From a virus (taxonomy: Duplodnaviria; Caudoviricetes): a stretch of 46,019 nt of DNA. A program made the translations under genes and the position numbers. The stretch is taken from positions 1 through 46,019 of the IMG/VR virus record IMGVR_UViG_3300049298_000011; one strand, 5' to 3'. Below are positions 1,900-45,728 of the stretch, one piece after another (position 1 is the stretch's first letter; every line of letters begins with the position of its first letter). The notes beneath the pieces were generated by a model, which searched no databases, was not told the DNA's origin, and saw nothing but the letters and a program-made list of their open reading frames with translations.

Positions 1900-2229
1900 G
1901 TGATTCGAGTATCAGCATTTCTGGTGGAGTTTGCACGTGAGATCAGCAGTGATCTGCGCTCGCACGTCGCTCCCGACAAGCTCCAGTTCGAGGTTGAGAT
2001 GGAACTGCAGAAGCAGATCCTGTCTCAGTGTGTTCAGGCCATCGGCGAGTACCAGCAGGCCATCCAGTTCTATCGTTCGGATGAGGTGAAGATCGCCGCT
2101 GGTCGGAAGAAGGTGCTGCGTTTCATGGGGTACTGCAGTGAGATGTGGGTTGTGCAGGATCAGGTGAAGGGAGCACTGACGTCTGGCGAGGTGCGGGACA
2201 TCACGGAGCTGGACGCAATCTTTTCCTAA
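1900..2229 (+). CDS. Hypothetical protein
   Basis: AAGGAG RBS; stop codon lies inside palindrome copy 1. Confidence 0.7.
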   Translation: MIRVSAFLVEFAREISSDLRSHVAPDKLQFEVEMELQKQILSQCVQAIGEYQQAIQFYRSDEVKIAAGRKKVLRFMGYCSEMWVVQDQVKGALTSGEVRDITELDAIFS

Positions 2230-2246
2230 TTACACCGGGTAATTAG
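2226..2246. promoter_or_regulatory. Palindromic site CTAATTAC-N5-GTAATTAG, copy 1
   Basis: CTAATTAC ACCGG GTAATTAG. Confidence 0.9.
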
Positions 2247-2274
2247 TGAATCACTCAACTGGAGGCGGATCACA

Positions 2275-2508
2275 ATGAGCAGACGATCGCTGCAGTATCG
2301 GGACAGCTACAGTCGGACTGGGAAGGAAGTGCTGGAGCAGGTGATCCTCAGTCGGCACAGCTTCGCCAGATCAGAAGGCAGGACTCAGCTGTACATCGAA
2401 GCATCAGGGCGGCACGTTCCAGGAATTCCGTCTCGCATCCAGGCCTCCATGCCTATCAAGCCGGCGAAAGCCGCACGACTGGCGGCGTCGCTGCGGAGGT
2501 ACTTCTGA
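2275..2508 (+). CDS. Basic hypothetical protein
   Basis: GGAGG RBS; TGATG coupling. Confidence 0.65.
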   Translation: MSRRSLQYRDSYSRTGKEVLEQVILSRHSFARSEGRTQLYIEASGRHVPGIPSRIQASMPIKPAKAARLAASLRRYF

Positions 2509-3029
2509 TGGGAGTCAAGAGCAAGATCTGGGGGCTGGATGTCGAGGTCTTCGATGACGCCGAGACTAGTGGCTCCAATGATACCTACTTTCAGGTCGAA
2601 GGTATCGCTGGCAAAGCCTTCCCAACGCCGAGCCCGGCCACATTCATTGGTGAGCCGCCGAAGCTCAAGCCCGAGCTCAAGGTTGAGTGGCTGACCGCAC
2701 TCAATCATGGCAGCTACAAGCAGGGCCAAGCATACCTCGCGCAATGGCCGAGCAACGAGAAGGGTGTTCATTACTGCTGCCTCGGTGTGCTCTGCGAGAT
2801 CGAGCGACTGGACTTCCAGACCATCAATCTCAACGACGGCACGGTTATCTCAATGGCCTCGTCAGTCAAGAAGTACGAGTTCGATGAGACCAACTCCGAG
2901 GTATTTCTTCCGGCCAAGTTCGCAGAGTCCATCGGACTCACGGAGGAACATCAGCTTCTGCTGAGCAGTCTCAACGACAGCGGCTGGACATTCGAGGAGA
3001 TCGCAGCCCTCATCGAGAGGGTTTGCTAA
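2508..3029 (+). CDS. Hypothetical phage protein (YCCLGVLC...LND..WTFEEIA type)
   Basis: GGAGG RBS; coupled at both ends. Confidence 0.75.
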   Translation: MGVKSKIWGLDVEVFDDAETSGSNDTYFQVEGIAGKAFPTPSPATFIGEPPKLKPELKVEWLTALNHGSYKQGQAYLAQWPSNEKGVHYCCLGVLCEIERLDFQTINLNDGTVISMASSVKKYEFDETNSEVFLPAKFAESIGLTEEHQLLLSSLNDSGWTFEEIAALIERVC

Positions 3030-3445
3030 TGGATGCGGGATTCGACAGCTACACTGGGGTACCTATCCAGAAGTACGAATCTCAAATCCCGAACATCGGC
3101 AAGGGAAGATCACCCTTCTACAAGGAGGCGGAACTCCAGCGAATATCCGCGCAGTACTACATCGGACCCCACGAGGGAGGCAGCGTGGCGGAGCCCAGCG
3201 TGGCCGCGGAGTCCGTCCCCGCGCCACGTAGCTGGTACCTGCGTCGTGAGGGTTGCCCCGCCGAGTTCTTCCCTGCGCTGCGCAGTTCCGCTGTTGCTCA
3301 TGCAGTCATGGACTGGTGCGTGAGGAACGATGCCTCAGTTCGCATCGTGATTCATTGGCTCACTGAGGGTAACATCGAGCCATACTTCAACCTACTCGAT
3401 AGAGTAGCGGAGATTGCGGATGTCGTTGACAGAGCTCGAAGCTAA
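3029..3445 (+). CDS. Hypothetical protein
   Basis: TAATG overlap, GAGAGG RBS. Confidence 0.65.
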   Translation: MDAGFDSYTGVPIQKYESQIPNIGKGRSPFYKEAELQRISAQYYIGPHEGGSVAEPSVAAESVPAPRSWYLRREGCPAEFFPALRSSAVAHAVMDWCVRNDASVRIVIHWLTEGNIEPYFNLLDRVAEIADVVDRARS

Positions 3446-3548
3446 CCGCGAGAAGATCCGACGCAGGATCTGGCTCGTCATCAAGGTGATAGGATTCATT
3501 GATGGCTTGCTGATCGGGCACATCATTTTCCTGGCCTGTCATGGCTGA
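3420..3548 (+). CDS. Small membrane protein (42 aa, MSLTELEANREKIRRRIWLVIKVIGFIDGLLIGHIIFLACHG)
   Basis: Hand-translated; GGAG RBS; fills gap between genes; hydrophobic C-terminal half. Confidence 0.55.
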   Translation: MSLTELEANREKIRRRIWLVIKVIGFIDGLLIGHIIFLACHG

Positions 3549-3771
3549 CAAGAAGACCCGCTGCTATTGCGAGAAATCCGTGATAGCTAACTGCGACATC
3601 TGCAAAGAGAAGGCACACATCAGTCCGAGCACTGGACTCTGCATTGTGTGCCTGACTGGGGAAGTCCAGGATCGTCTCGCAGAGTTCATTCTCCACGACA
3701 TCAACTGTCCGGAGACGAAGCATGCACAGAGTCAAGCTCGCGAAGCGCTTCAACGCAAGGAGGGAAAGTGA
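3541..3771 (+). CDS. Cys-rich hypothetical protein
   Basis: CYC, CDIC, CIVC; overlaps neighbours. Confidence 0.6.
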   Translation: MADKKTRCYCEKSVIANCDICKEKAHISPSTGLCIVCLTGEVQDRLAEFILHDINCPETKHAQSQAREALQRKEGK

Positions 3772-4103
3772 GCAAGCATACCCTAACAATCGACTGCCCG
3801 ATCTGCGAGGATGAGATCGAGGTCGAGGTAACAGTCACGCACTGGGGTAGCCGCGGCAGCTACTGGGAGCCGGCCGAGGGACCAGAGACTGAGTGGGAGG
3901 TTCCGAAGGAATGTGACAGCTGCAAGGGCAGCTTCTCGCATGAACAGTACGAGGAACTCAGCAACAAGATCGAGAAGAGGGTTGATGATAAGCTGTGTGA
4001 CTGGGAGGATGATGTCGGCCAGGCTATTGCGGATCACGAGGTTGATTCTTATCTCGAGGATCTGCATTACAAGAACACAACCTATGGAGATGGGCCACTG
4101 TGA
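3768..4103 (+). CDS. Acidic zinc-ribbon protein
   Basis: AAGGAGG RBS, GTG start; CPIC...CDSC. Confidence 0.7.
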   Translation: MSKHTLTIDCPICEDEIEVEVTVTHWGSRGSYWEPAEGPETEWEVPKECDSCKGSFSHEQYEELSNKIEKRVDDKLCDWEDDVGQAIADHEVDSYLEDLHYKNTTYGDGPL

Positions 4104-4414
4104 GACTCGAAGAGATGCTCGAACCGGAGGAGCGCGACGAGGGCTGGCTCGGTCAGTTCATGAAGAAGGAACCAGTGACCTTCGACGTGGATCGCAGGTT
4201 CATCGAGGCACTGGATCGCTACGTCAAGGATCGGATTCCGACTGGCGGATTCCTCGGCGCGGTCCTCTGCAACAACCTGAAGGAAGCAGTGGGTATGGCT
4301 GACATCGAGAGTCAGCTTCAGCTGTGTGCAATCGTAAGCTACTGCTACAATCACATCCCCTCGGAATCATGGGGCTCACCGGAGAAGGTAGCGCAGTGGC
4401 TGACGAAATCCTGA
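4100..4414 (+). CDS. Hypothetical phage protein
   Basis: GGFLGAVLCNNL...WGSPEKV motif; GTGA overlap. Confidence 0.75.
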   Translation: MRLEEMLEPEERDEGWLGQFMKKEPVTFDVDRRFIEALDRYVKDRIPTGGFLGAVLCNNLKEAVGMADIESQLQLCAIVSYCYNHIPSESWGSPEKVAQWLTKS

Positions 4415-4620
4415 CCATCAAGAACAGAACCGATCGCCCTTCTAATCGGGCTATCATTACTACCCTCTGTATCAAGAAGGGTGTTCGACACTGGAATATC
4501 ACAGTCTGGAATCGTGGTGGCCAGGCTGGGATTCTCACGGTGGATGCAGCGGACGGGCAGACTATTGTCAACAAGCTAATTCCACCAAACATTCAGACAG
4601 TTCAACCGGAGATACCCTGA
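4396..4620 (+). CDS. Hypothetical protein
   Basis: GTG start after GGAGAAGG; abuts next ATG. Confidence 0.6.
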   Translation: MADEILTIKNRTDRPSNRAIITTLCIKKGVRHWNITVWNRGGQAGILTVDAADGQTIVNKLIPPNIQTVQPEIP

Positions 4621-5090
4621 TGAAAGTCACGATGCTGACGAAGCGAGTCACAGTCAATGTGGTCTCGCACCGAGCATCACATGCGCTCGAAGAGTTCCTC
4701 AATACCCCTGAATGTGAGGGTTGCGAGGTGCTCTCAGCTGGAGTCACGCTGGTCACAAATCCCGACGCACTGAAGAAGACAGTGGAGTTTGTGAAGGCTA
4801 CTGGCACACCCATTCTGGGATACAAGCCAGACATGGACTCCGAGAGCTCCGAGCAGAAGGTGTGGGTGGTGACGGTAGACCTCGAAGAGGCTATCGACTT
4901 CACGAAGTCGGCAACAGATGAAACAGCGACCGAGCCAGCTGTACCTGTCCAGGATTTCGAGCAGCGCTTCGACGGCTGGTATTTCCGTGGCGTGGATGAG
5001 GATAGCTATGGTCCCTACGCAACGATCGCGGAAGCTGAGGCGGAACGCAGTAACTACCTGAAGTGGGTGGAGGACGGTAAGCCTGTATGA
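4620..5090 (+). CDS. Hypothetical protein
   Basis: GGAG RBS; C-terminal GWYF...GPYAT..EAE motif. Confidence 0.7.
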   Translation: MKVTMLTKRVTVNVVSHRASHALEEFLNTPECEGCEVLSAGVTLVTNPDALKKTVEFVKATGTPILGYKPDMDSESSEQKVWVVTVDLEEAIDFTKSATDETATEPAVPVQDFEQRFDGWYFRGVDEDSYGPYATIAEAEAERSNYLKWVEDGKPV

Positions 5091-5356
5091 GCAATGGTGA
5101 GCGTCGGCTGACAATCGCCTACATCGAGAGCCGGGACTGCTCATGGCCGTTTACGGTGAAGGAGCAAGCCAAGCTCGTCCTTCGGTTGTCAGCCGAACTC
5201 ACCACTAAGCGGCGCAAGCTAGCTGAGCTCAACATGATGGAGCCAGAGAAGATTGATCTGATGGAGGATGTTGCTCGACTTCATCAGCATCTCGGTGTGG
5301 CCTACCGCAACATGGCCCGAGAGCTGAAGTATTCCCAGGCTCTCATTGATCCCTAA
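5087..5356 (+). CDS. Hypothetical helical protein
   Basis: ATGA overlap; stop codon inside palindrome copy 2. Confidence 0.65.
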   Translation: MSNGERRLTIAYIESRDCSWPFTVKEQAKLVLRLSAELTTKRRKLAELNMMEPEKIDLMEDVARLHQHLGVAYRNMARELKYSQALIDP

Positions 5357-5373
5357 TTACTCGGAGTAATTAG
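5353..5373. promoter_or_regulatory. Palindromic site copy 2, overlapping RBS of the gene at 5375
   Basis: CTAATTAC TCGGA GTAATTAG t ATG. Confidence 0.9.
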
Positions 5374-5374
5374 T

Positions 5375-6175: not shown

Positions 6176-6347
6176 GTCCGAGGATGACTTCGAGGATCTA
6201 GATGAGTACGACGAGGAGCAGGACATCGACGGTGAGTCTGGTACATTCGTAGATCCAGGAGTCGAGGATGAGGATGTCCCAGAGGACGAAGCGCTATGGG
6301 ATCTTCCGCCAGAGCCTCGCTCGATCGGAGATGAGGACGACGAGTAG
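6168..6347 (+). CDS. Highly acidic small protein
   Basis: 59 aa, about half Asp/Glu; overlaps previous stop. Confidence 0.6.
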   Translation: MAESEDDFEDLDEYDEEQDIDGESGTFVDPGVEDEDVPEDEALWDLPPEPRSIGDEDDE

Positions 6348-6356
6348 TATCGCAGG

Positions 6357-8847: not shown

Positions 8848-8876
8848 TTGACTTTTCGGGTGCAGACTGTTATATT
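8848..8876 (+). promoter_or_regulatory. Sigma70-type promoter of the replication module
   Basis: TTGACT-N17-TATATT with extended -10 TG, intergenic. Confidence 0.8.
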
Positions 8877-8932: not shown

Positions 8933-9145
8933 ATGGCGGCGGGGAAGGAGTTCGGCGCGACAGTTCCTGAAGAGGAATGGCAGAGGTTCAAGCAGAATAC
9001 TGGCATGATCTACGGTGCTACCAACTGGTTCATCAATGCGGCGCTCAAGGAGTTCAATGATCGGGTAGATGCTAACCCGACGCTGAAGATGATGGTCCAA
9101 CAGAGCATCGAGTCCATGCTGGTCGAGAAGCGGGAAGCCAAATAA
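8933..9145 (+). CDS. Putative ribbon-helix-helix DNA-binding protein
   Basis: GGAGG RBS; beta-alpha-alpha pattern EFGATVPEEEWQRFK...NWFINAALKEF; first gene after a promoter. Confidence 0.55.
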   Translation: MAAGKEFGATVPEEEWQRFKQNTGMIYGATNWFINAALKEFNDRVDANPTLKMMVQQSIESMLVEKREAK

Positions 9146-10100: not shown

Positions 10101-10261
10101 GGGAGAAGGGCAAGCTGCAGGCACTCGAGGAGAAGCTCGGCATCGAGAATGAACCCATGTTCTCGATTGAGGAGCGGCTCATTCGAGTGGCCGACGCGCA
10201 GCAGAAGCAGATCGACAGGCTGATGCGGCTGATGGAAGTCGATCAAGGGAGTGAGGAGTGA
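10097..10261 (+). CDS. Small coiled-coil protein
   Basis: GGAGG RBS; ATGA and GTGA overlaps. Confidence 0.6.
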   Translation: MREKGKLQALEEKLGIENEPMFSIEERLIRVADAQQKQIDRLMRLMEVDQGSEE

Positions 10262-10620
10262 GTAAGATTCCAGTATTCAAGCCGATGCCAGGAAAGATCG
10301 TGGCTAAGGTCATCGGTGAGCGTGGAGTCTACGGCAGTGGGATCATCCTGAAGCCGGCGACGGTAAGAAATCCGCGCACGACTGCAGAAGTCATTGCAGT
10401 GTATGAGCCCTTCCTCGTGAACAATGAGGAGACAGAGGCGTACGTTCAGGTAGGTGACAAGATCATCTTCGGTATGCACTCAGGTATCGAGATTGAGTAT
10501 GGTACTGAGAAAGTCATCATCCTGCGCGAGCAGGAAATCCTTACCAAGGTTGAAACTGATGACGTGAGTGACATCTCAGTTGTCAGCAACACTGCAGGAT
10601 TCGATGATCTGGAGGGATGA
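10258..10620 (+). CDS. groES: Co-chaperonin GroES-like protein
   Basis: KPMPGKIVAK, GSGIIL mobile loop, AEVIAV, VQVGDKIIF...SGIEI...ILREQEIL. Confidence 0.9.
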   Translation: MSKIPVFKPMPGKIVAKVIGERGVYGSGIILKPATVRNPRTTAEVIAVYEPFLVNNEETEAYVQVGDKIIFGMHSGIEIEYGTEKVIILREQEILTKVETDDVSDISVVSNTAGFDDLEG

Positions 10621-12257: not shown

Positions 12258-12278
12258 CTAATTACCCGGAGTAATTAG
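12258..12278. promoter_or_regulatory. Palindromic site copy 3, overlapping RBS of the ParB-MTase gene
   Basis: CTAATTAC CCGGA GTAATTAG tca ATG. Confidence 0.9.
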
Positions 12279-12281
12279 TCA

Positions 12282-13790
12282 ATGTCCGATAATAGTCTGG
12301 TCCAAGAGGCCAGAGCCCTAAGTAGTCATGTCAGTATATTGGACATCTTCGTCGGAGCTCGGCGCCGTAAGGACTACGGGAACATCGAGGATCTGGCAAA
12401 GGACTTCCAGGAAAACGGACAGATTACGGCAATTACAGTTCGTCCTCCCAACGAGGATGAGCTTGCAGATCCGGAGTACAACAAGGAGCCTTGGGTTCTC
12501 ATTGCTGGCGGTCGGCGTATGGCTGCTGCAATGCGGCTCGGGTGGACAACGATCAGAGCTATTGATCGTGAGGCAATGGACCCGCTCAAGCATCGTGTTC
12601 TGGAGCTGGCTGAGAATCTTCAGCGAAAGGACATGGACTTCGTAGAGGTCGTCAAGGCCAAGCAGGAGATGTTCCTCATCAGGGCCGAGCAGAATCCTGA
12701 GATTACTCAGGCCGAGGTTGCGAGGGAGATTGGTGAGACGCCGGCGAACTTCAGCCGTGACCTCAATGTAGCTCAGCTGATTGAGTCGCGCCCCGAACTG
12801 AAGGCAGCCAGCAGTAAGAAGGCCGTACTTCGTGCTGGCAAGATGATTGGCCATCTGGAAGCGAGAGTGGCTCGTGAATCAATTACAGGAGGTAGCGGAC
12901 TGGCTGAACTGGCAGCCCGAATGGTCACTGCTGAAGCCGGAACTTGGCTACGTGGACAGCCCGAAGGGCGGTTCGACGCAGTTATTAGCGATCCCCCCTA
13001 TGGAATTGATCACTACAAGCAGGGTCACAAGACAGTTAGTGGCGAAGCTGGGCTGTCCGAGTATGATGACTCGGAGGGCGTGTCTCTAGACCTGTACGTA
13101 GACGTGGTTCCGGAGATGATTCGTGTGACTCGTAAGACTGGTTGGATCGTCCTGTTTCAGGCCGAGGCCAACTACGAGTTCCTGAAGAATCTGTTCGAGA
13201 CCTGTTGCTGCACGCACTACTGCTACAAGGAGAACCCACTGAACAACGTGTGCTCTGCTTGGTACGATGGTGGTGCTGACTGTCGGTTCCGTAAGGTGGA
13301 GGAACCACGCTGGATCTGGTATCGGCCGAACTCGCAGAACAATCCTCGGTATCCTGAGGAGCATGCGAAGAACGTGTACGAGCATCTGCTGGTATTCAAC
13401 AGAGGTCAGGGCAAGCTCCTGCGTCCGTGTGACAACCTGCTGGCATATGAGGCAGAATATGGCAGCCGTATCCACGCCATGCAGAAGCCAATCGAACTGC
13501 TCAAGGATCTGATCAGTCGGGTTACACTGACGGGCGAGTCCATCTGCGATCCGTTCTTCGGCAGTGGCTCGACGCTGAAAGCTGGGGCGCAGCTGGCCAG
13601 GGATATTTGGGGGTGCGAGAAGAATCCCGCGCTGCATGATCCTGCGATGGGATACGTCAGCCAAGACTGGAATGGTACTTCACCTCGCGCAACGCAGGAC
13701 AACACGACGTCAGACTACCTCGACACGCAGCTTGCAGATTTCAGCGAGGAGGATGCTGACGATATGGAGGAGCTCGATGTCGAAGCGTGA
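12282..13790 (+). CDS. ParB-like N-domain + HTH fused to N6A/N4C DNA methyltransferase
   Basis: RRRKDYG, LIAGGRR, ELAENLQRKD (ParB); TQAEVAREIG..PANFSRDL (HTH); DPPY, QKPIELL, DPFFGSGST (beta-class MTase). Confidence 0.9.
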   Translation: MSDNSLVQEARALSSHVSILDIFVGARRRKDYGNIEDLAKDFQENGQITAITVRPPNEDELADPEYNKEPWVLIAGGRRMAAAMRLGWTTIRAIDREAMDPLKHRVLELAENLQRKDMDFVEVVKAKQEMFLIRAEQNPEITQAEVAREIGETPANFSRDLNVAQLIESRPELKAASSKKAVLRAGKMIGHLEARVARESITGGSGLAELAARMVTAEAGTWLRGQPEGRFDAVISDPPYGIDHYKQGHKTVSGEAGLSEYDDSEGVSLDLYVDVVPEMIRVTRKTGWIVLFQAEANYEFLKNLFETCCCTHYCYKENPLNNVCSAWYDGGADCRFRKVEEPRWIWYRPNSQNNPRYPEEHAKNVYEHLLVFNRGQGKLLRPCDNLLAYEAEYGSRIHAMQKPIELLKDLISRVTLTGESICDPFFGSGSTLKAGAQLARDIWGCEKNPALHDPAMGYVSQDWNGTSPRATQDNTTSDYLDTQLADFSEEDADDMEELDVEA

Positions 13791-13953
13791 GCTGATTCCT
13801 GTAACGCTGCTGGAATGGTACTGTCCTACCTGCGATCACTTCAAGATGGTAGGCGTAGCGGAGAACGGCAGGGTTGCCTGCCTACGTTGTGGAACTGTCC
13901 TTGCTACGATTCTGGTCAAGGACCCTAACCAGGTCGCGCTTCCTCTTGATTAG
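13777..13953 (+). CDS. Small zinc-ribbon protein
   Basis: GGAGG RBS; CPTC...CLRC. Confidence 0.65.
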   Translation: MSKRELIPVTLLEWYCPTCDHFKMVGVAENGRVACLRCGTVLATILVKDPNQVALPLD

Positions 13954-16438
13954 AGTTCCTGCCATCGGCCCCGAGAATGCCAGGATTATGATTGTCGGGG
14001 AGGCACCGGGAGCTACGGAGGAGTCTGAGGGTAGGCCGTTCGTTGGACCTGCTGGCAAGATGCTCCGTAACTTCCTGAACCGTGCCGGGATAGATCCAGA
14101 TGAGGTCTATCTAACGAACATCTGTAAGTACAGGCCTCCCGGGAACAAGCTGGAGAAGTGGTTCCATAGGGGAGGTCTGCCAAATGATGTAGTCATGCAC
14201 GGAATGATCGAGCTACAGGAGGACATTCAGCGGATTCGTCCAAATGTAGTAGTCGCTTGCGGAAACTTCCCGTTGTGGGCACTCACTGGAATCGGCAAGT
14301 GGAATGAAAAGGAGACAGAGACCAGCGCGAGAGGTTACTCAGGGATTTCTAAATGGCGGGGCTCCATTCTGGAATCGAGTATGGTTCCAGGAGTCAAGGT
14401 TATCCCGACTTTCCATCCCTCCTACATCAACAGAGAGGGGTACTCTGATCACGGAACTTGGTCAGTGGACCTTGATCGGATCGCCAGAGAGTCCGCTTTT
14501 CCTGAAGTCCGTGTACCAGTCAAGAATCCTATCATCGACCCTACGGGTATACAACGCACTGACTTCCGAAAGAGAGTCTTGGATGCAGCTAGTGACCCAT
14601 CCAAGATTCTTACGTTCGACATCGAGTACATAGGTGAGAAGCTACTGTGTGTAGGTATGACGCTGGATAGAGACAATCCAGTGGTGGTACCAACACGCAG
14701 CCCGAGCGACATCCACTACTGTAGGGACATCCTGCTTAGTGGTATTGGGCTCAATGCACAGAACGCAGCATTCGATTGCAGCATCTTGGAATGGTGGTAT
14801 CAGATGCCGGTGTATCAGTATCTGCGCTACGATACCATGTTGGCAGCACACTCAGCAAACATCGAGCTACCAAAGTCCCTTGAGTACCTGTGCTCGATCT
14901 ATACGGATCAGCGCTACTACAAGGACATGGTAGACTGGAACCTGATCAAGAAGGGTAAGCAGAGTTTCAGTACCTTGTACGAGTACAATGCTATTGATAC
15001 ATGGACGCAGCATCAAATCATGGAGGAGCAGATCAAGGAGGATCTGACCGAGGATTGTGTTCGGGCTACCTTCGAGTTTGAGATGCAGCTCCTGCGTCCA
15101 TTGTGGGAGATGAGCAAGCGCGGCGTGAGGGTAGACATCGCCGCTGTTCGACAACTGGAGATTACACTGAAGAACGAAATCGTAGCGTACGATGCGCTCC
15201 TCAGTATGACAGCCGGCCGCAAGGTCAATGTCATGTCTCCGAACGATCTGCGCTGGTTGCTGTTCGAGAAGTATGGACTCACGCCAGTCAAGCGTACCAA
15301 GACTGGAGCATCAACCGATGACAAGAGCTTGGCCGAACTTCTCACGAAGGCTAGCGGCGAAGCTGTGGAGGTTATTACTCTTGTCCGAGACATCAAGTCC
15401 AGACGAAGCCTTGTCTCCAAGTTCATTGGCATCGAACTGGATGATGACGGTAGGCTACGAGGACAGTACAATCCGGCTGGCACTGATACCGGACGACTTG
15501 CGAGCAAAAAGTTCTATCCCACCGGCAGAGGTGCTAATCAACAGAACCAACCTCGCGATAAACGAGTACGCTCCGTTTTTCTCCCTGACGAAGGGTTCGA
15601 GTTTGGCTACGCTGATCTCGAGCGAGCTGAGTCACTTGTCGTCGCTAAGATCACTAGCGATCCGGAGATGCTACGTGTACATCAACCTGGGATTGATGCG
15701 CACAAGGAACTCGCCGCGCAGCTTTTCGGTTGCCGAGTCGAAGACGTCACTGATGATCAGCGCTACCTTGGCAAGAAGACGCGGCATGCCGGAAACTACA
15801 TGCAGGGTCCTCTTCGATTTATGAAGGAGATCAATAAGGATGCAGCCAAGACAGGTGTCTCAATTGACTTCTCGGAAGCGAAGCACTACATCAATACCTA
15901 CCGGGAAATCAACCAGTGTCTGCAGCCTTGGTGGCATGAAACCGAGATCGAGTTGTATCAGTCTCGCACGCTGTACAATCTTCTGGGTCGTAAGCGGGTG
16001 TTCTACTCATGCCGGCCAACTGGACATAACTCAGTTAGTGAACTCCCCAACGCAGTAGCGTTTGTGCCGCAATCAACCGTAGGGGATACACTCAACGTCG
16101 GCCTGTTGCAATTGAGTGGCGTAGCGTGTCAATACGGGGCAAAGCGGGGCATTATAACGCGGATTGCGGAACACCTTCCTGTACTCCGGGCGGCGCGGTT
16201 CCAGACCCTGATGCAGATTCACGATGCTGTAGCGTACCAGTACGATCCTAAGTACCGAGACGAGGTGGGTCACGCCATCCGGGAGCTGATGCGCGTTCCG
16301 CTGACTGTTCCTAAGACCGGCGAGGTCTTCGAGATTCCCGTTGAAATCCAGGTTGGCAAATCTTGGGGAGAGGTGAAGGTATGGCACGAGGCACGAGTGA
16401 ACGAATCTTCGACATCCTCCGTGGCGCTCGCCAGCTGA
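13946..16438 (+). CDS. polA: Family A DNA polymerase with N-terminal uracil-DNA glycosylase (family 4-like) domain and 3'-5' exonuclease
   Basis: GEAPG..E...GRPFVGPAG, RPPGN, HPS (UDG); FDIE, NAAFD, YNAID (exo); TGRL, ADLERAE, RYLGKKTRHAGNY, QIHD (pol). Start uncertain (TTG 13946 chosen; frame open from 13874). Confidence 0.95.
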   Translation: MIRVPAIGPENARIMIVGEAPGATEESEGRPFVGPAGKMLRNFLNRAGIDPDEVYLTNICKYRPPGNKLEKWFHRGGLPNDVVMHGMIELQEDIQRIRPNVVVACGNFPLWALTGIGKWNEKETETSARGYSGISKWRGSILESSMVPGVKVIPTFHPSYINREGYSDHGTWSVDLDRIARESAFPEVRVPVKNPIIDPTGIQRTDFRKRVLDAASDPSKILTFDIEYIGEKLLCVGMTLDRDNPVVVPTRSPSDIHYCRDILLSGIGLNAQNAAFDCSILEWWYQMPVYQYLRYDTMLAAHSANIELPKSLEYLCSIYTDQRYYKDMVDWNLIKKGKQSFSTLYEYNAIDTWTQHQIMEEQIKEDLTEDCVRATFEFEMQLLRPLWEMSKRGVRVDIAAVRQLEITLKNEIVAYDALLSMTAGRKVNVMSPNDLRWLLFEKYGLTPVKRTKTGASTDDKSLAELLTKASGEAVEVITLVRDIKSRRSLVSKFIGIELDDDGRLRGQYNPAGTDTGRLASKKFYPTGRGANQQNQPRDKRVRSVFLPDEGFEFGYADLERAESLVVAKITSDPEMLRVHQPGIDAHKELAAQLFGCRVEDVTDDQRYLGKKTRHAGNYMQGPLRFMKEINKDAAKTGVSIDFSEAKHYINTYREINQCLQPWWHETEIELYQSRTLYNLLGRKRVFYSCRPTGHNSVSELPNAVAFVPQSTVGDTLNVGLLQLSGVACQYGAKRGIITRIAEHLPVLRAARFQTLMQIHDAVAYQYDPKYRDEVGHAIRELMRVPLTVPKTGEVFEIPVEIQVGKSWGEVKVWHEARVNESSTSSVALAS

Positions 16439-17270: not shown

Positions 17271-18505
17271 TGGCAGCTTCGACCACCAGAAAACTGGGGA
17301 ACTGGCTCGAAGAGTACAGAAACTTTACGAGCGGAACAGAGTCTCCAGCGGCGTTTCATCTCTGGGTGGCACTCGGCACAATCAGTGCGGCACTCCAGCG
17401 GAAGGTCAGCATGGATGCAGGCTACTATGATGTCCATAGTAACATGTATATCATTCTGACTTCACCGCCAGGAAAGTCGCGGAAATCTACAGCCCTTCGC
17501 ATTGGCAAGAGTCTGTTGAGGGGACTCAAGGATTACGGACAGGACATTCACTTCTCGACTCAGGCATCATCAGTTGCGGCGCTGGTCAAGCAGCTAACCG
17601 CAATACCCAACAAGGATCACCAGAGTCTGACAGCATTCTCGTCAGAGCTTGGATCGTTACTCGGTAGTAAGTCTATCGAGATGACAGACTTTCTCGTAGA
17701 CATCTACGACTGTGATCCTGATTGGGATAAGCAGACGATGCAGCGCGGCTTGGAGAAGATTGAATTTCCTTGGCTCACGTTGCTAGCTGCTACGACTCCG
17801 CAGTGGCTCGGTGATAACCTGAGCAAGACCGCAGTTGAGGGTGGGTTCGTAGCTCGATCAGTGTTCGTGTATGAGGAGACAAGACTGCTCGTAGCATTTC
17901 CTGAGCTCAACGAAGAACAGAAGAAGCTCAAGAAACTTCTCATTCACGATCTAGCTATCATCAGTGCGCTGAAGGGAAGAATGAAGTTCAGTCCAGAGGC
18001 TAAGGAGTTCTATAAGAACTGGTATGAAGATCCGAAGCGCATGGCTGGTTCTGGAAAGGACTATCGAATCTCAGGATACTTCGAGCGCAAGCATATTCAT
18101 GTGCTGAAGGTAGCAATGGCTATCAGCGTGGCAGCGCGGAACGAACTGGTACTCGACGTAGATTCAATCAAGGCAGCTATCATGCTGCTCAACTCAATCG
18201 AGCCCGGTATGAGGAAGGCGTTCAGTGCTGTGGGTAAGAATCCCCATGCTACAGTCATCGAACGAATCAGAGATCAGGTGGTAGATGCTGGTAAGATCAC
18301 CTACAAGAGACTCCTCGCAGCTAACGTAGCCGATGTCAGCAAGGATGACTTCGACAAGATTCTCAGCACGCTGGTCGATATGGGAGACATCATCTACGAG
18401 GGTAAGTCAGTGATCGACGCGAGAGCCACAGAAGTTGAACTGGATCTCAAGACAAATCCGGAGGGAGAAGTGAAGGACACATCCCTAATTACCCAGAGTA
18501 ATTAG
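17270..18505 (+). CDS. DUF3987/YfjI-like P-loop ATPase (putative replicative helicase)
   Basis: ESPAAFHLW, NMYIILTSPPGKSRKSTA, SSELG, DIYD, LLAATTP, GGFVAR. Confidence 0.8.
   Translation: MAASTTRKLGNWLEEYRNFTSGTESPAAFHLWVALGTISAALQRKVSMDAGYYDVHSNMYIILTSPPGKSRKSTALRIGKSLLRGLKDYGQDIHFSTQASSVAALVKQLTAIPNKDHQSLTAFSSELGSLLGSKSIEMTDFLVDIYDCDPDWDKQTMQRGLEKIEFPWLTLLAATTPQWLGDNLSKTAVEGGFVARSVFVYEETRLLVAFPELNEEQKKLKKLLIHDLAIISALKGRMKFSPEAKEFYKNWYEDPKRMAGSGKDYRISGYFERKHIHVLKVAMAISVAARNELVLDVDSIKAAIMLLNSIEPGMRKAFSAVGKNPHATVIERIRDQVVDAGKITYKRLLAANVADVSKDDFDKILSTLVDMGDIIYEGKSVIDARATEVELDLKTNPEGEVKDTSLITQSN
18485..18505. promoter_or_regulatory. Palindromic site copy 4
   Basis: CTAATTAC CCAGA GTAATTAG c ATG; includes the ATPase stop codon. 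Confidence 0.9.
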
Positions 18506-22400: not shown

Positions 22401-25400
22401 GATTCGTATGATGCTCAGCACCGCCTTCCATCACTGGCTCCAGCGCATCGCCAGGATTTGCAGCATGTGGGCTGATAGCAGCAACCTCAACTGGTACGTC
22501 GCCAATCGGGCTGTAGTCCGGCATCTCTCGATTGAATCCACGCAGGAACTCCATCGCAGATTCATCAGAGGTAACCGGAACCTTCAGATCGCCAAGCTGG
22601 TCAATCAGTGTACCGCCGCCGTCAGGATAGACCTGATACCTGAATCCCTTCGTCGCAGCAATATCCTCGACTGGAATGTGCTCGCGAGGATTGATGCTAC
22701 GCATGACGTTGAGCTCACGATTCGCAGCAGTATTCTCCGCAACCTCAGCAGGAGCAAGCGACTGGAAATCCCGAACTCTGCGCACGTTGAAGTATGACTC
22801 AATCGCAGCGCGACTGAGCTTCGAGCCACCAACTTCAGCATCGAGAAAGTCTCCCATCAGCCTCGGAAGCTGCGACGAGGTTTCATGTGAGAGCCACGAC
22901 GTGTCTACATTCGCACCCATTGGCAGCTTCGCCGATTCCGACTTCATGTACCGATCAACCAGCTGCTGGAAGCGACTGTACAGCCGATCACCAGATTCTG
23001 CCAGTCCCTCGATGTCGGTATTGCTGCTCCGTCCCGGCATGATCTGGTCATGAGGAACCAAATATGACTCCTCAGTGTAGGGATTGTATACCCTTGCCTG
23101 ACCATTACCGGCATTAGCCTTCATGACGATGGCATCCTTACCATTCGCCATAACTTGCTGCTGATCGAAGAAGCCATGCTCCTTGTACTGTGCAACGCGC
23201 TTGTTAGTAATCGGCAGTCCATCGCTGACGAGCATATCCATCTGACCATTGCGCTCAACGAAGCGGAACTGATGAGGCATGATCCGTCCCTCAACAGATG
23301 CTTGGGTCAGACCACGTACCACCTTCGAAGCATCACCCACTCCCTGAATGACATTGATCCGCTCAGGATTCTGGAACATCGCAGACTTCGCTACATCCGA
23401 GACGTCGATCTGCGTACCACCAGCCAGCTCAGGAAGCGTTGGGCCTTCCATCAGCGTAGCTTGCTTCGTCAGTGCGGCGGCCTCTGCAGCGGTCGTCTTG
23501 GGTAGATCAATCGCCCGCTCATTCCTCAGAGCTTGTGGGAACGGATACTGCGGCGTTTCCAACGTTGGCAAATTACCCTGTGTAATCTGCGGTTGATCAA
23601 ACAGATTGACTTGATTCTCGTCGTGAGCTGGCAGTTTGTCAGTTACCCGCTTGTTCGCTGTCATCTCGATGTCAGCTTCAGCGTAGTTCCGACCAGTGTA
23701 GGTCTTCAGCCATGTCTTGAGCTTGGCACCAGACTCGTGCGTAATCTCCTGATAGCTCAGTTCCTTGACACGCGCAGCATAAGCTTCGGCCTGTTCCGCA
23801 GGAACGATTGCCGCGAACTCGTCGCCGCCGTGACGGAAGATTCGCACAGGAATCTGCATCTCCTGCGCAGTCTGAACCATTGCACGAGCATGATTGATAA
23901 TAGCCTGATCACCAGCCTGATGGCTGATGTTGTCATTGATAGTCTTGATTCCCTTACCATCACTCAAGACGACTGTGAGACTCGGGTCAGCGTCAGCAGT
24001 GGCAACCGCCCTGTCGAACGCTGCGCGATTCCCCAGTCCAGTCATCTCATCGGTATGAGCACGCTGCTTCCAGATGTCAACCTCATTCGTCAGATCGTCG
24101 ATCCGGCGCATGGAAGCAGACAGCTGTGGAGACATCAGCTGCGGTTGACCTTCTGGCATGACAGCCGCAGCGGCAGCCTCATCAGGCCCCACTCCACCTC
24201 CCATACGAATACTAGAATCGACAGGCCCTTGCCCAGCCCCGCCCTGCACAAGAGCTTCCCCCGGCGGTAGTGCGCCGCTCGGCGGTTCTGTGGGGCCAGC
24301 GCCGTTTCCTTCCCCTGAGCCGAGTCTCCGACTCTGTGGAACCAGCTGTCCCGGCATCTGGTGATCAGCCTCGAAATACCATTCAGCATCAACAGTACCC
24401 GGAGGCTCAGGAGCGATAGGCTCATCGAACATAGCAGGTGCTGACTTACTCGGGAACGCGCCTCTGACTTTGTTCGCAAGAGCTGGCAGAGCAATGCCGA
24501 ACACTACACCACCGACTGCTCCAGCACCTACCTTCATTGCAGCTTCTTGATTTGACTGATCACCACCACCTTCCAGCATCCATGCCGAGGCAGCGCCCTG
24601 AATGGCAGCACGACCAATAGGACTCATGGCCAGTCTACCAACTGTCCCGAGCGTTCCGATGTACTCGGCCGTACCAGCGACAGCGCCTAGTCCGCCGACT
24701 GCTCCTGCTGCTCGCCATGCCGCCTCACCAGGAATGATGAAGCCCAGCACTCCACCGAGTCCGTGAGCAATACGATAGCCCTTTCGCTCACCCTCGCTCA
24801 TTCCAGCCTGCACACCCTCGTTCAGGTTGTTGAGCCACTGACTAGTGCGCTGCGTGATCTGGGCCTCAGCGATTGAGGAACCGATGAATGGGATATGCTG
24901 AACCATTCCGACCAAGCCCTGGGTAGCACCCAGACCAGCAGCGGCAGCAGCCGTCATGCCGACATCTACGAGAGGGTTCAAGCCTCTGTCAACGTCCTCT
25001 GACGATAGCCTCTTCTGTGCAACAATCTGACGCAGTACCTCAGGCGGCATCTTGTCAGCATTCGGGATGCCCCAGAACTGAGCAGCACCCATTAGCTGGT
25101 TGCGCTCCTCGAAGTTCTTGAATCCCTGCTGATGAAGCTGCTGATAGTCTGTCAGCGTACCATCAGCATTCTGTCCACTGATCTGATGCTGATTGGCTAC
25201 CTGATCAGCGAAGTTGAGCTCGGTGCCTGGAGGAGTAACATTTGCACTCCGAACAGTATTGGCGAGCCTCAACCTGTTACTGATGTCATCGACTAGCTGT
25301 GTACGACGCTTCAGCATGTTGTCCCACTCCGACCGAGCTACATCGGAGTCAACACCAAGCTGAGCATTGTAGTCAGGATACTGAAAAGCGGGTCCGGTCA

Positions 25401-27329: not shown

Positions 27330-27350
27330 CTAATTACTCCGTGTAATTAG
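27330..27350. promoter_or_regulatory. Palindromic site copy 5
   Basis: Minus strand reads CTAATTAC ACGGA GTAATTAG c ATG. Confidence 0.9.
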
Positions 27351-27780
27351 TGAAACGGAGAAACACTGACTCTTCGTTGTGAAAGGTCTCGGTGAATCCT
27401 GCTCGTCGGCCGAAAGCGAGCAGCACTCGTCGATCCTTTGGAACCGCTGTAATGAGCTCTTTCTTCGTCACACCAGTAACGAACGTCGATAGTTTCCTGC
27501 ACAATCCTTCTCTACCACGAAGCCTTCCATCCCAGAACGTGATATGACAGTGAAGGTGCTCAGCTATTGGCATCACGGTAATCAGCCCCACATCGTCTAT
27601 CTGGAAGAACGTGTTCTCCGGGTCGAGGAAGATTGCGTAGGGGTTATCAATTCCAGTCAAGAAGTTAGGAACCAGCTGCATCAGATCCACTGTCTCCATA
27701 ATCTTCGCCGGAGATAGTGGCAAGAAACTGATGCGCCGCCAGATTGCTCCACCCTTCTCCAGACAGAGAACCTCAAACAT
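27334..27780 (-). CDS. GNAT-like virion assembly protein (P22 gp14 / T7 gp13-like position)
   Basis: HCHITFWD...LITAVPKDRR.LLAFGRRAGF; precedes ejection genes. Confidence 0.6.
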   Translation of the reverse strand: MFEVLCLEKGGAIWRRISFLPLSPAKIMETVDLMQLVPNFLTGIDNPYAIFLDPENTFFQIDDVGLITVMPIAEHLHCHITFWDGRLRGREGLCRKLSTFVTGVTKKELITAVPKDRRVLLAFGRRAGFTETFHNEESVFLRFTNYTE

Positions 27781-33686: not shown

Positions 33687-33707
33687 CTAATTACTCCGGG
33701 TAATTAG
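33687..33707. promoter_or_regulatory. Palindromic site copy 6
   Basis: Minus strand reads CTAATTAC CCGGA GTAATTAG g ATG. Confidence 0.9.
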
Positions 33708-38962: not shown

Positions 38963-38983
38963 CTAATTACTCCGGGTAATTAG
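38963..38983. promoter_or_regulatory. Palindromic site copy 7
   Basis: Minus strand reads CTAATTAC CCGGA GTAATTAG t ATG. Confidence 0.9.
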
Positions 38984-41895: not shown

Positions 41896-42083
41896 TGGTT
41901 AGTAGGTTCGAGTAACTGCGAACTGCGCATCGCGGGAATTGTCGCGGCGGCGGGCTGCGTACCACCGAGGCTGGACTCCTGGGTAGGGACGGGAACCGCA
42001 ACTGCAACTGCAACTGCGGAAGGGCTCCGAACATCTATCAGGTTCTTTGCCACTCCAGGGCCGTAGTATTCGTCTCGCGTCAT
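41892..42083 (-). CDS. Small hypothetical protein
   Basis: ATGA overlaps on both sides. Confidence 0.5.
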   Translation of the reverse strand: MTRDEYYGPGVAKNLIDVRSPSAVAVAVAVPVPTQESSLGGTQPAAATIPAMRSSQLLEPTNQ

Positions 42084-42832: not shown

Positions 42833-42847
42833 TCAAACTCCGGAGAA

Positions 42848-42915
42848 GGAAGGCAGAGCCAGCTGATGCATCCCCAAAGGAGGTGTCCAATCTCCACACC
42901 AGCTGGATGCCTTCC
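42848..42915 (-). other. Intergenic structured RNA element
   Basis: GGAAGGCA/TGCCTTCC outer stem plus 11-bp CCAGCTGGTGT/GCATCAGCTGG inner stem. Confidence 0.55.
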
Positions 42916-42931
42916 ATCGGCATAGCCGAGA

Positions 42932-43540
42932 CTACATGTCTACCGGCTCGGACGGAACTTCTTCATCGGAACCGAACGCTGAGTCCTTGCTCTGAGCATC
43001 GAGGAAACGCTTGCGAGTCGCACGCGATCCTGCGTAATCACCGATGTCATAGCCACGATCGCTCGCCACGGCGCGAAGCTCTCCGGGGCTCATCATCTCA
43101 GCCTTGTTTCGGCTGATCTTCTCGTACCCCGCCCGAATCGTCTGCTTGTCCGCAGCGGTCAGGTGGTCCTGTGCGCGCTTGGCAGCAGCCTGTGGGTCAT
43201 GCTCGACAGCCGAAACCGGAACCAGACCACTCGGGCTGGCCACATGGTTCACGGGGAGCGTACCGTTCGTGCTCACGATCGCCGGCTGAGCCTGTGCACC
43301 AATCGGCTCCTTCGCTTCGACAGCGGCGAAATCACCCTTCGGTTCACCTCCAGCAATCGGAATGGTCGAGCCATCCGACTCCCGCTCCGGCACTTCCTCA
43401 CCAGACTCCTCGCGCAGAAGAGCTTCACGCTCCTGACCAATCGCAGTGTTGCGACCAGCTGTGGAGTTCGCGAGAACCTTCTTGCGTGCTTCCTCGGACT
43501 GCTGCGGAGCCTCGGGTGCTTCTGCACTCTTTTTCGTCAT
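42932..43540 (-). CDS. Hypothetical protein with possible C-terminal HeH/Rho-N-like motif
   Basis: AGGAG RBS; disordered N-terminus; MSPGELRAVASDRGYDI. Confidence 0.7.
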   Translation of the reverse strand: MTKKSAEAPEAPQQSEEARKKVLANSTAGRNTAIGQEREALLREESGEEVPERESDGSTIPIAGGEPKGDFAAVEAKEPIGAQAQPAIVSTNGTLPVNHVASPSGLVPVSAVEHDPQAAAKRAQDHLTAADKQTIRAGYEKISRNKAEMMSPGELRAVASDRGYDIGDYAGSRATRKRFLDAQSKDSAFGSDEEVPSEPVDM

Positions 43541-43566
43541 GTTTCTCTCCTGTTGGGCCTCCGTGA

Positions 43567-43587
43567 CTAATTACCCGATGTAATTAG
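43567..43587. promoter_or_regulatory. Palindromic site copy 8
   Basis: CTAATTAC CCGAT GTAATTAG, intergenic. Confidence 0.9.
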
Positions 43588-43625
43588 CCCCTCGGACCGT
43601 GCTGGCCTTCCGGCAGCAAGCTGCC

Positions 43626-44213
43626 TCATCCCACAGGAAGTGCCACTTCTGGAAACTCGAGGTCGCCCCACTGGGCAGCCATAGCTTCCGCAAAACCCTG
43701 AAACGTCTTTGATCTCAGCATCCCTCGCTCCGGAGATGGTCCAAGATCATGCAAGCTGCTTCGACCTGGCCTCACAATGCATGTTGGGTGCAGAGGAAGC
43801 AACCCTTTCAGCCACAAACAGGTCGTCTTTTGCTCTGGATCGCCGAAGTAGAACGGATGAATGATCTGATCTGGTGGCCGGATTCGAGTCGAAATGATCG
43901 AAACAGGATTCTCGAGTGCTATCTTCGGTATCGAACAGTGCAGAATGAAGCTAACTAAGTCCAGATCAGCCTCTTGAAGCTCACGTTTCTCTGCAAAATG
44001 TCGTGCACCTGAGACTGCAAGGTTCGTACAGGGTGGATGCGCGATCAGCAGGTCATAGTGTGGGTCTCTGCGAATGACTTCTCGCAGATCAGCTTGGATG
44101 TGTGGCCCAGGGACTCGAGTTTCCTGCAGATCACAGCTTGTAGCATCGTGCCCACGAGCCAGAAACGCATCCCGTACGACTCCGAACACCTCGCATCCAA
44201 TCAGAACACGCAT
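43626..44213 (-). CDS. Short phage-type C5 cytosine DNA methyltransferase
   Basis: RVLIGCE..GVVRDAF, SCDL, IAHPPCT, ALENP, KTTCLWL, RSKTF.G.A.AMA.QWG. Confidence 0.85.
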   Translation of the reverse strand: MRVLIGCEVFGVVRDAFLARGHDATSCDLQETRVPGPHIQADLREVIRRDPHYDLLIAHPPCTNLAVSGARHFAEKRELQEADLDLVSFILHCSIPKIALENPVSIISTRIRPPDQIIHPFYFGDPEQKTTCLWLKGLLPLHPTCIVRPGRSSLHDLGPSPERGMLRSKTFQGFAEAMAAQWGDLEFPEVALPVG

Positions 44214-44371
44214 TACCGCTTGCGCCCGCCACGCTTGACTGGCTTTCCCGAGGCCCGTGCCCCGAAGAAGCGGCGCTGCTTGGGAGTCAGCTTCTTTCCA
44301 TGAGCGGTTCCATCGTGCAGAATTTCTTTAGCTTTCCGCTTAGAAAGGCCTGACTTCTTTTTGCTAGCCAT
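44213..44371 (-). CDS. Very basic 52-aa protein (MASKKKSGLSKRKAKEILHDGTAHGKKLTPKQRRFFGARASGKPVKRGGRKR)
   Basis: Hand-translated; GGAGG RBS; first gene after the minus-strand promoter; TAATG overlap with the MTase gene. Confidence 0.75.
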   Translation of the reverse strand: MASKKKSGLSKRKAKEILHDGTAHGKKLTPKQRRFFGARASGKPVKRGGRKR

Positions 44372-44410
44372 TTCTGCCCTCCAGTGAGTCCTGGTCGCGG
44401 TACCATATGC

Positions 44411-44439
44411 ACTATACTATAGTAGGCAGGGAATGTCAA
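44411..44439 (-). promoter_or_regulatory. Sigma70-type promoter heading the minus-strand operon
   Basis: TTGACA-N17-TATAGT on the minus strand. Confidence 0.8.
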
Positions 44440-45096
44440 CCCCTTCCCGTAACCTCGGCTTTTGCCGAACTTGACATATCCTTTTCTCGACTTGTCTGTC
44501 CCGGCTTGCCGGGTGCAGTTTCGTGCGAATCAGACCTAAATTGGCTGGATCTGTGTGCTAGCTAGGCGAAGGATTTAGGAACTCCGCGCGGATCGTTTTT
44601 AGGGTCGGCATCTTGGTCAGACCTAATTGATTGCTGGATCAACTAATGCTGGCGCCATCATTGCAGGGGAGCCTATTGCTAGACGATGCATTGCTCCGTC
44701 ATTGATTGACCTGCGGATAAGTGCAGGCTGGCACATGGGGGTGCCGCAGATTGCAACACTCCAGACTGGCATCCTGCGAGGGTATGATCCTGGACAGTTT
44801 GACCGATTCGCAACTTGCAAGGAATCGTGCATAGTGCAATACCCCTGGACGTAGCGGTCATTCTGACCTAGCGGCTAAGTCATTGCGCCACAACATGTTA
44901 GGTCATCGAGACCTGGCGGCATGGAACCTGCATATGATGTCCACCGAAGGGCCGCTGTTTGACAATGGAAGGTCCGGTAGGTTGCCCGATTCCGCTGCCG
45001 CGTTTCGCATGCGTCAGAAAGACACAATCGGGCAGACCTATCATGTGGTCAGTATCATTCCGATACTGGCAAATCCCCAAGTCAGGAGTTCGCAAC

Positions 45097-45555
45097 ATGC
45101 AGGAGCGCATTTTCACCCTGAAAAAGGGTACCGAAGTTGCAGATCGTTTCGACGGCGTGACGGTTCCGTTTCAGGTTCCGGCCAACCTCGACGATATCAA
45201 GAAGGTCTGCAACGGCGATGAGAAGGTCATCGTGGCCGTTTTCAATCAGGCGCATGCATTGAACGTGCAGAAACACGTCAAGTCTGGCGCGATGGAAGCT
45301 GATGCGACGGTGGAATCGCTGCGAAAGGATGCCGCGGAGTTCAAGTATGGTCAGGTTCGGGTTCGGTCTGGTGCCGGTGGCGCAGCCCGTGTCAAGCCTG
45401 CCACGTTGGACGCGGCGCTCGGTGACGATTTCCTCAGCATGCTCACCCCGGAGCAGCGCAAGCTGTACGAGGCCAAGAAGGCCGCGCTGCAGCCCAAGGC
45501 CGCCACTCCGGCCACCCCGGCGACGAAGCCGGCCGCGACCGCCGCGAAGAAGTAG
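45097..45555 (+). CDS. Stand-alone hypothetical protein with A/K/P/T-rich tail
   Basis: AGGAG RBS at ATG 45097; own terminator; tail KAATPATPATKPAATAAKK. Confidence 0.75.
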   Translation: MQERIFTLKKGTEVADRFDGVTVPFQVPANLDDIKKVCNGDEKVIVAVFNQAHALNVQKHVKSGAMEADATVESLRKDAAEFKYGQVRVRSGAGGAARVKPATLDAALGDDFLSMLTPEQRKLYEAKKAALQPKAATPATPATKPAATAAKK

Positions 45556-45570
45556 CGGAATCAGCGCAAG

Positions 45571-45605
45571 AAAGGGTCTGGCCCGAAAGGGTCAGGCCTT
45601 TTTTT
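45571..45605 (+). terminator. Intrinsic terminator
   Basis: GGGTCTGGCCC-GAAA-GGGTCAGGCC followed by T7. Confidence 0.9.
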
Positions 45606-45648
45606 GTGCCAGTCGGCCAGGTTTTCTCCCCAGTTCCAACCCTGTTCA

Positions 45649-45701
45649 GTAATGTTTCAGCATAGGTAATTGACCTGAGGTGTAATGTTTCAGCATAGGT
45701 A
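45649..45701. repeat. 20-bp direct repeat, two copies
   Basis: GTAATGTTTCAGCATAGGTA at 45649-45668 and 45682-45701. Confidence 0.9.
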
Positions 45702-45707
45702 CTCGGG

Positions 45708-45728
45708 CTAATTACCCTGTGTAATTAG
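45708..45728. promoter_or_regulatory. Palindromic site copy 9 (extra half-site GTAATTAG at 45813-45820)
   Basis: CTAATTAC CCTGT GTAATTAG. Confidence 0.9.

Follow-up and report, generated by a model that had tools for sequence, protein, structure and literature searches.

What reads a palindrome that recurs at gene junctions throughout a phage genome, and what might such a dispersed array do? The question is raised by the virus record IMGVR_UViG_3300049298_000011 (Duplodnaviria; Caudoviricetes; genome G000, whose 46,019 bases are the window analyzed here), a complete, podophage-like record with a 127-base terminal overlap. A 21-letter palindrome, formed by two 8-letter arms around a 5-letter center, occurs in nine perfect copies dispersed over this whole genome. 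We find that the dyad is a real, family-wide element, and propose as its reader the product of the gene at 12282, which combines ParB N-terminal, helix-turn-helix (HTH) and beta-class DNA methyltransferase domains.

An evenly dispersed array of dyads

A scan of the window bore out all nine positions reported in an earlier note on this DNA, together with the perfect symmetry of the arms in every copy and the lone half-site (Table 1). It also recovered a tenth, degenerate dyad with three mismatches, overlooked in that note, within the gene for a 1967-amino acid (aa) protein. The chance expectation at up to three mismatches, from 100 dinucleotide shuffles, is a mean of 0.02 matches per genome. 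The spacing, earlier given as one copy every 2-9 kb, was measured as gaps of 2.1-8.8 kb between the nine perfect copies, narrowing to 2.1-6.9 kb once the tenth is included. With a coefficient of variation of the gaps of 0.35, the ten sites are more even than under uniform placement (P=0.0007), and the nine perfect copies alone retain this evenness both against uniform placement (P=0.008) and against random gene starts (P=0.002). Eight of the nine are no more than 40 bp away from a gene end, positions that constitute 20% of the genome, and the ninth is non-coding. Besides the half-site, the non-coding region 45640-46019 plus 1-160 contains short repeats, both direct and inverted, and, immediately before dyad 9, a direct repeat of 20 nt; it is a candidate origin or packaging region.

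Two further readings of the array were tried and rejected. As regards promoters, no dyad overlaps a listed sigma-70-type match, the best of these (187, 8848 and 44439) being overlapped by none of the nine, and the total number of matches is not above that in shuffles. As regards recombinase sites, considered on account of the directional spacer, no recombinase family was found among the 73 open reading frames (ORFs) in searches with PHROGs and Pfam; neither was an integrase or a CI-like repressor, in agreement with what had been noted before.

A ParB-HTH-methyltransferase as the probable reader

The 12282 product, the first candidate of the earlier note, is the best candidate reader, and it quite probably reads the dyads. 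It contains the ParB nucleotide-binding boxes as GGRR at 76-79 and EN..R at 111-115, and across 46 homologues EN..R is present in all 46 and GGRR or GERR in 45. Its family-profile matches fall below the cut-offs (PF02195, E 1e-5, just under the curated cut-off; TIGR00180, E 1e-14), the HTH aligns with that of ParB and Noc, and sequence matches to ParB/Noc are recovered from the PDB. A structure model with a mean pLDDT of 84.5 places helices at 143-150 and 154-169, and resembles Noc/ParB N-terminally and beta-class methyltransferases C-terminally: Foldseek recovers CcrM (2e-12) and Noc 7nfu (1e-8 over 199 columns), and also M.BceJIV and M.RsrI. The C-terminal domain has the beta-class motif order, with motif IV as DPPY at 237-240 followed by motif I as FFGSG at 425-429.

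Site families in related genomes

Scanning related genomes for degenerate copies, as the earlier note had suggested, uncovered lineage-specific versions of the dyad at similar junctions. In G001, whose proteins are about 70% identical to those of the window, five perfect copies and three with two mismatches are found in 25 kb. More distant relatives have their own odd-centered dyads of the same geometry: seven in G009, five in L059, two to three each in L032, L057, L038 and L040, and 11 high-scoring ones in G010, where three weaker matches above the shuffle threshold were excluded. A scan of viral contigs for the exact motif returned 15 loci, five of them in G001 and ten as single matches; the latter were set aside as chance, the four records that were checked having one copy each.

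Positions recur between relatives without being rigid. Of 32 capsid-gene loci, 23 were examined after duplicates and truncated loci were excluded; in 11 of the 23 a site lies no more than 140 nt downstream of the capsid gene, in many cases preceded by a hairpin, and the other 12 have none there. Other recurrent junctions are those at the SSB gene, the primase end, the portal gene and upstream of the homologue of 42932. Between genomes, sites are displaced by at least one gene, lying either before or after the SSB gene, and either before the portal gene or one gene earlier. The spacing is again more even than random in G009 (P=0.005), G010 (P=0.002) and OP947158 (P=0.03).

The last of these, the Desulfofustis phage OP947158, encodes the same replication block and a ParB-HTH-methyltransferase, and carries nine dyads of the same geometry, as against 3-5 in the best shuffled family; its capsid is not among the 25 best of the 41 matches of the G000 capsid. 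Overall, a dispersed dyad family is present in five of the six complete or near-complete genomes with the fusion (G000, G009, G010, OP947158 and MW202489), and likewise in the fragments G001 (eight copies) and L059 (five copies). A fuzzy dyad search over 33 methylase-only loci returned loose families, each with 1-4 members, and serves as a weak control only, the known sites of G001 having been missed in L023. No further phages emerged from scanning with P0158 or with the HTH alignment. One record, L110 (ON073792, Yong-DA), deposited as a cyanophage, was rejected: it has ParA, ParB, replication and polysaccharide genes and no virion genes, and looks like a plasmid. Its five parS-like 16-bp dyads serve solely as a positive control for the dyad search.

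Covariation of the recognition helix with the half-site

Residue 154 of the 12282 product aligns with R173 of Caulobacter crescentus ParB, which is described as one of the four residues that set specificity for parS versus NBS and as paired with base 1 of the site (PMC7383237). In the three genomes with Lys at this residue, position 1 of the half-site is G in every arm (14/14 in G009, 10/10 in L059 and 18/18 in OP947158). Where the residue is P, A, Q or V (G000, with P in its helix, G001, G010 and L096), position 1 is A or T, again in every arm (20/20, 16/16, 22/22 and 2/2, respectively). Counted by genome, Lys goes with G in 3/3 and a non-basic residue with A/T in 4/4. On the tree of the methylase domain, residue and base change together twice. 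L059 and L096 are sisters (support 96/98) and opposite in both traits, and a single clade of the Lys/G group is rejected with p-AU 0.0009 for the methylase domain and 6e-5 for the polymerase tree. We consider these two coupled changes suggestive, short of proof, of the 12282 product as the reader. A weaker pattern involves residue 180, which is G, N or H in genomes with a strict A at position 6 (G009, G010 and OP947158) and Lys in those with mixed bases there (G000, G001 and L059); L096 combines Lys with A at a single site.

Gene junctions and rival explanations

In the six copies of the window that precede a gene, the ATG begins 1-3 nt past the dyad when read along the coding strand, as the earlier note described; the Shine-Dalgarno sequence within the motif (GGAG in five copies, AGAG in one) ends 8-10 nt before that ATG. 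Likewise, five upstream stop codons lie within the dyad, giving rise to the C-termini FTNYTE, FTNYPE and LITQSN. The remaining four copies precede no gene and lack GGAG. The spacer GGAG, though real, is optional, and the emphasis that had been placed on ribosome-binding sites does not generalize: at 6 of the 11 orthologous post-capsid sites a Shine-Dalgarno-like purine run lies outside the dyad, within the 8-13 nt that separate it from the start codon, so that the embedding of ribosome-binding sites looks like a secondary use of an unread spacer.

These junctions bear on the alternative that the dyad is an mRNA hairpin which masks the ribosome-binding site until the upstream ribosome opens the stem. 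In the window, 79 of the 80 arm pairs are Watson-Crick, the sole exception being G-U on the sense strand; the stem probability in context is 0.35-1.0 for nine of the ten copies, and in four copies a stop codon lies together with the GGAG or AGAG of the next gene. We nevertheless regard this as very improbable, given that the stem is weak (about -5 kcal/mol), that four copies precede no gene start, and that within each genome the arm sequence itself is fixed beyond what pairing would demand. Moreover, at the orthologous post-capsid site pairs are broken in 9 of the 11 relatives, with 12 mismatches over 88 positions, none of them G-U on the sense strand, and the A/G variation at arm position 4 in G010 yields A-C rather than G-U on that strand in all six asymmetric cases. 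The lack of compensatory changes claimed earlier holds within the window; across relatives, symmetric and pair-breaking changes are both seen. In view of the broken pairs, the lack of G-U and the purine run outside the dyad, the half-sites behave as independent sequence words, and the sites of the relatives support the principal proposal of the earlier note, namely that a dimeric protein would read the dyad in double-stranded DNA. A hairpin may form as a side effect, with a mild translational effect in the G000 lineage.

If a protein reads the dyads, the ribbon-helix-helix (RHH)-like product of 8933, the product of 7095 and the small terminase 42080 have to be weighed alongside the 12282 product. 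It is rather unlikely that the 8933 protein is the reader. It has a language-model score of 0.91 to the RHH_1 cluster, is found in all five close relatives, and is most similar in its N-terminal strand among G000, G001 and G010, the genomes with the most similar sites. Moreover, the operators that Arc and Mnt read are of this size, about 21 bp. Against it, in G000 the promoter-like site of its gene carries no dyad and none lies closer to the gene than 3 kb, and no homologue was detected in OP947158 with its nine dyads of the same geometry (no match at E<1 for the profiles of 8933 or 7095), keeping in mind that a 70-aa protein can escape a five-sequence profile. We attach a similarly small probability to another phage protein or a host regulator. 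The small terminase has an HTH-like stretch (weak matches), and 7095, for which a search of the atlas gave no usable match, is again present in all five close relatives; yet the L040 site is a single arm position away from that of G000 with a terminase helix that differs at most positions, 7095 was not detected in OP947158, and from one phage lineage to the next, changes in the site accompany those in the helix of 12282. The remaining alternative, only slightly less unlikely, retains 12282 as the reader and has it bound as a static operator or roadblock at junctions, tuning read-through and repressing its own gene without sliding. It would account for the site 3 nt before the 12282 start, for the eight of nine sites at gene ends and for the post-capsid site behind a hairpin in many relatives. 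It fits poorly with sites that move by at least one gene between relatives as the spacing stays even, with a tenth site in mid-gene, with the lack of overlap between the nine dyads and the best promoter-like matches, and with the invariance of the nucleotide-binding boxes.

Two observations stand apart from this weighing. In the G010 and L059 families the arm variants are oriented with transcription (in G010, A upstream and the G-type arm downstream), a bias in direction not accounted for by a fully symmetric reader. The RHH-like gene is preceded by a strong sigma-70-type promoter with an extended -10 element at 8848-8876 (+), and translated upstream regions in G001, G009, G010 and L059 suggest that this promoter is conserved.

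Comparison with known systems

Among characterized systems, the array of G000 probably works like that of KorB and its OB sites, rather than like parABS or a stoperator array. KorB is reported to slide from twelve OB sites on the IncP plasmid RK2 of about 60 kb (PMC11790492, PMC13768133). Shared with it are a ParB-family reader, dyads dispersed over the replicon with a density of roughly one in 5 kb, and positions conserved between relatives. In turn, G000 is a phage with no detected ParA, a methyltransferase as the C-terminal domain and a different site sequence; its sites overlap no predicted promoters, and for a clamp-locking partner there is a candidate in the RHH-like 8933 protein, with the 8848-8876 promoter as a possible target. 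A parABS system was rejected, the sites being more even than random instead of clustered in one centromere region; no ParA family was found among the 73 ORFs and no ParA-type Walker A motif among 67 proteins. In the parS layout two bases lie between the position-6 bases. G000 differs in having three, as well as in its dispersed sites, its lack of a detected ParA and the P at the 173-equivalent. The same N-terminal boxes and HTH are nevertheless shared with ParB-parS and Noc-NBS, as is, in the relatives, a basic R173-equivalent with G at position 1 (PMC7383237). BisD of ICEclc, described as a ParB-like clamp that slides from two sites and has an activator domain (PMC12409273), offers a parallel for a clamp with an additional functional domain and parS-like loading sites that acts at a distance on a mobile element; G000 differs from it in its ten sites and its methyltransferase domain.

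Of the phage repeats, those of the Cluster O mycobacteriophages come closest, with 34 copies of a 17-bp repeat that has invariant arms and a 3-bp variable center (PMC4351075). These, too, are genome-wide dyads that have stood without explanation since 2015, in phages without an integrase and with a ParB-like protein (Corndog gp90); they differ in sequence, and gp90 has no match to a methylase domain and a weak match to the HTH profile (E 0.04). The gp90 gene (L109, 14425-15933) comes from a cultured phage, with 22 dyads in the 30 kb examined. The start-associated sequences of Cluster K, 13-mers described as tied to start codons (PMC3203893), resemble the dyads in their repeats at the ribosome-binding-site position; membership in that class was rejected, this position being occupied by just 6 of the 10 copies in G000 and the ribosome-binding site lying outside the dyad at 6 of the 11 orthologous sites. 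The analogy with stoperators drawn in the earlier note proved weak: L5-type stoperators are described as asymmetric and oriented with transcription (PMC4351075), whereas the G000 sites are symmetric and no repressor or integrase family was found.

A proposed clamp-loading mechanism

What is observed is a set of evenly spaced dyads, a protein with three domains, and a recognition helix that varies in parallel with the site among relatives. From this we infer a mechanism in which the ten dyads would be double-stranded DNA loading sites for the 12282 protein, followed by sliding coverage; we lean toward it over its alternatives. A 12282 dimer would read both half-sites through its HTH, whereupon a nucleotide, probably CTP, would close the N-terminal gate as in ParB and KorB, and the clamp would slide off the site; ParB folds are reported to bind ATP or GTP too (PMC12704722). 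The beta-class methyltransferase domain, standing in place of the ParB dimerization domain, would close the ring. Beta-class methyltransferases are described as dimers (PMC7544214), and hence the methylase domain could replace the ParB dimerization domain. With one site per ~5 kb, the clamp would cover the whole phage chromosome, and exclusively DNA that bears the sites. The even spacing in four genomes, and the location of the degenerate site in the longest gene where the largest gap would otherwise be, fit selection for coverage. The central bases would be loosely read, and the lineage has accordingly accommodated ribosome-binding sites and stop codons within the element. As to the payload, cis-restricted methylation or a protective coating of the phage DNA, which we weigh about equally, is the most likely, with long-range gene regulation ranked second; taken by itself, methylation as the cargo is doubtful. 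In its fullest and most tentative form, the proposal turns the ParB clamp into a self-addressed machine for DNA modification: at intervals of ~5 kb, a private palindrome would load a ring closed by a methyltransferase, only the phage chromosome would be marked or shielded, and address and helix would co-evolve by the residue-base rule of parS.

Several observations weigh against parts of these proposals. The canonical motif IV, DPP[YF], is retained in just 14 of the 46 homologues, though it is intact in 12282, which weakens methylation as a conserved payload; in conjunction with the nearly invariant nucleotide-binding boxes, it makes the clamp look like the more conserved function. The covariation comprises just two coupled changes, with L096 contributing a single site; L061 has G at position 1 and an insertion in the helix, and one alignment places Pro at its residue 154; residue 180 is matched to G201 of ParB by helix position only. 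The 173-equivalent of Corndog gp90 is Ser, so that gp90 is not tied to this family by the residue rule, and an extension of the rule to gp90 is not supported. The presence of 12282, 8933 and 7095 in all five close-family genomes with the region covered means that presence alone does not decide between them. The Microcystis phage Mel-JY34 has the fusion and no array (one of the six complete genomes), its recognition helix being one residue short and without the S-x-D motif; the Gordonia phage BBQValindra, with a ParB-like protein lacking the methylase, also has no array, and the 12-kb fragments L060 and L095 show no clear one. In MW202489 the seven or eight dyads are even-centered, and their outer arms, long and GC-rich, could form hairpins. 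Conversely, dispersed dyads occur without a ParB fusion in L073 and in CP-T1, the latter with methylases, no annotated ParB and small dyad families of its own.

Fusions of ParB-CTPase and N6/N4-methyltransferase domains were found to be frequent in phages in a 2025 survey, with a role suggested, essentially as a guess, in anti-defence or host interaction; the domain pair is that of 12282, and the available text of the survey names no DNA site (PMC12704722). A truncated phage ParB without a DNA-binding domain is reported to activate a DNA dioxygenase (PMC13229309). In the open-access literature, supplements aside, we found no paper that links dispersed sites to a fusion of this kind. New from G000 are the joint variation of residue and base, the use of one outside phage to exclude two rival genes, and the observation that the catalytic motif has drifted. 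The family offers cognate site-protein pairs with natural specificity variants, in which binding, sliding and site-dependent methylation are directly testable. If the proposal is true, a methyltransferase would be targeted in cis by a loading site and not solely by its own recognition sequence, and the family would be a source of orthogonal ParB/site pairs.

Features of the genome

Table 1. Dyads of the window and the proteins considered as their readers
Feature	Coordinates	Strand	Context
Dyad copy 1	2226..2246		overlaps the stop codon of ORF 1900-2229
Dyad copy 2	5353..5373		contains the stop of 5087-5356; ATG of 5375 1 nt downstream; orthologous site in G001
Dyad copy 3	12258..12278		3 nt ahead of the ParB-HTH-methyltransferase start codon
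Dyad copy 4	18485..18505		entirely within the 3' end of the primase/helicase gene; then ATG of 18507
Degenerate copy 10	23569..23589		in the 1967-aa gene; divides the longest gap (8.8 kb) into 5.1 + 3.8 kb
Dyad copy 5	27330..27350		contains the stop of 27334-27780; then ATG of 27328, minus strand
Dyad copy 6	33687..33707		behind a hairpin 3' of the major capsid gene; orthologous site in 11/23 relatives examined
Dyad copy 7	38963..38983		one small gene upstream of the portal gene
Dyad copy 8	43567..43587		upstream of ORF 42932-43540; same-junction site in G001, G009 and G010
Dyad copy 9	45708..45728		non-coding; promoter-like site 187-215 follows after ~350 bp, counted around the circle
Isolated half-site	45813..45820
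Candidate dyad reader	12282..13790	+	ParB-N aa 27-114, HTH aa 143-169, beta-class N6/N4 methyltransferase aa 232-453
RHH-like protein	8933..9145	+	language-model atlas score 0.91 to the RHH_1 cluster; rival reader or possible partner

Beyond the ParB-methyltransferase, the genome encodes an SU10-like portal with an adaptor, a capsid, terminases, an exonuclease-Sak4-SSB block, a primase and a uracil-glycosylase/PolA fusion. No tRNA or tmRNA genes were found in G000, and a megablast search of its first 25 kb against public phages gave no match. One homologue comes from a Deltaproteobacteria bin, in which it lies on a short contig; this does not amount to an identification of the host. Several palindromic words are wholly absent from the genome, namely one AT-only 4-mer (59 expected) and four 6-mers (15-37 expected). 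Their absence suggests avoidance of host restriction sites; it indicates restriction pressure, and also that avoidance, not methylation, deals with those words. A second, short DNA-methyltransferase-like gene (phrog_757) is located at 43626-44213 (-), with a homologue in the early region of L059.

The uracil-DNA-glycosylase domain at 13874-16438 (+) is followed in the same protein by a family A DNA polymerase, a fusion that is full-length in G009 and G010 too. The recombination block contains a GroES-like co-chaperonin without GroEL at 10258-10620 (+). The 1967-aa protein (19498-25401, -), probably ejected from the virion, contains a GGDEF diguanylate-cyclase-like domain at aa 448-547 with an intact GGDEF motif at aa 525, and its homologues in G009 and G010 align only from aa 625-640 on.

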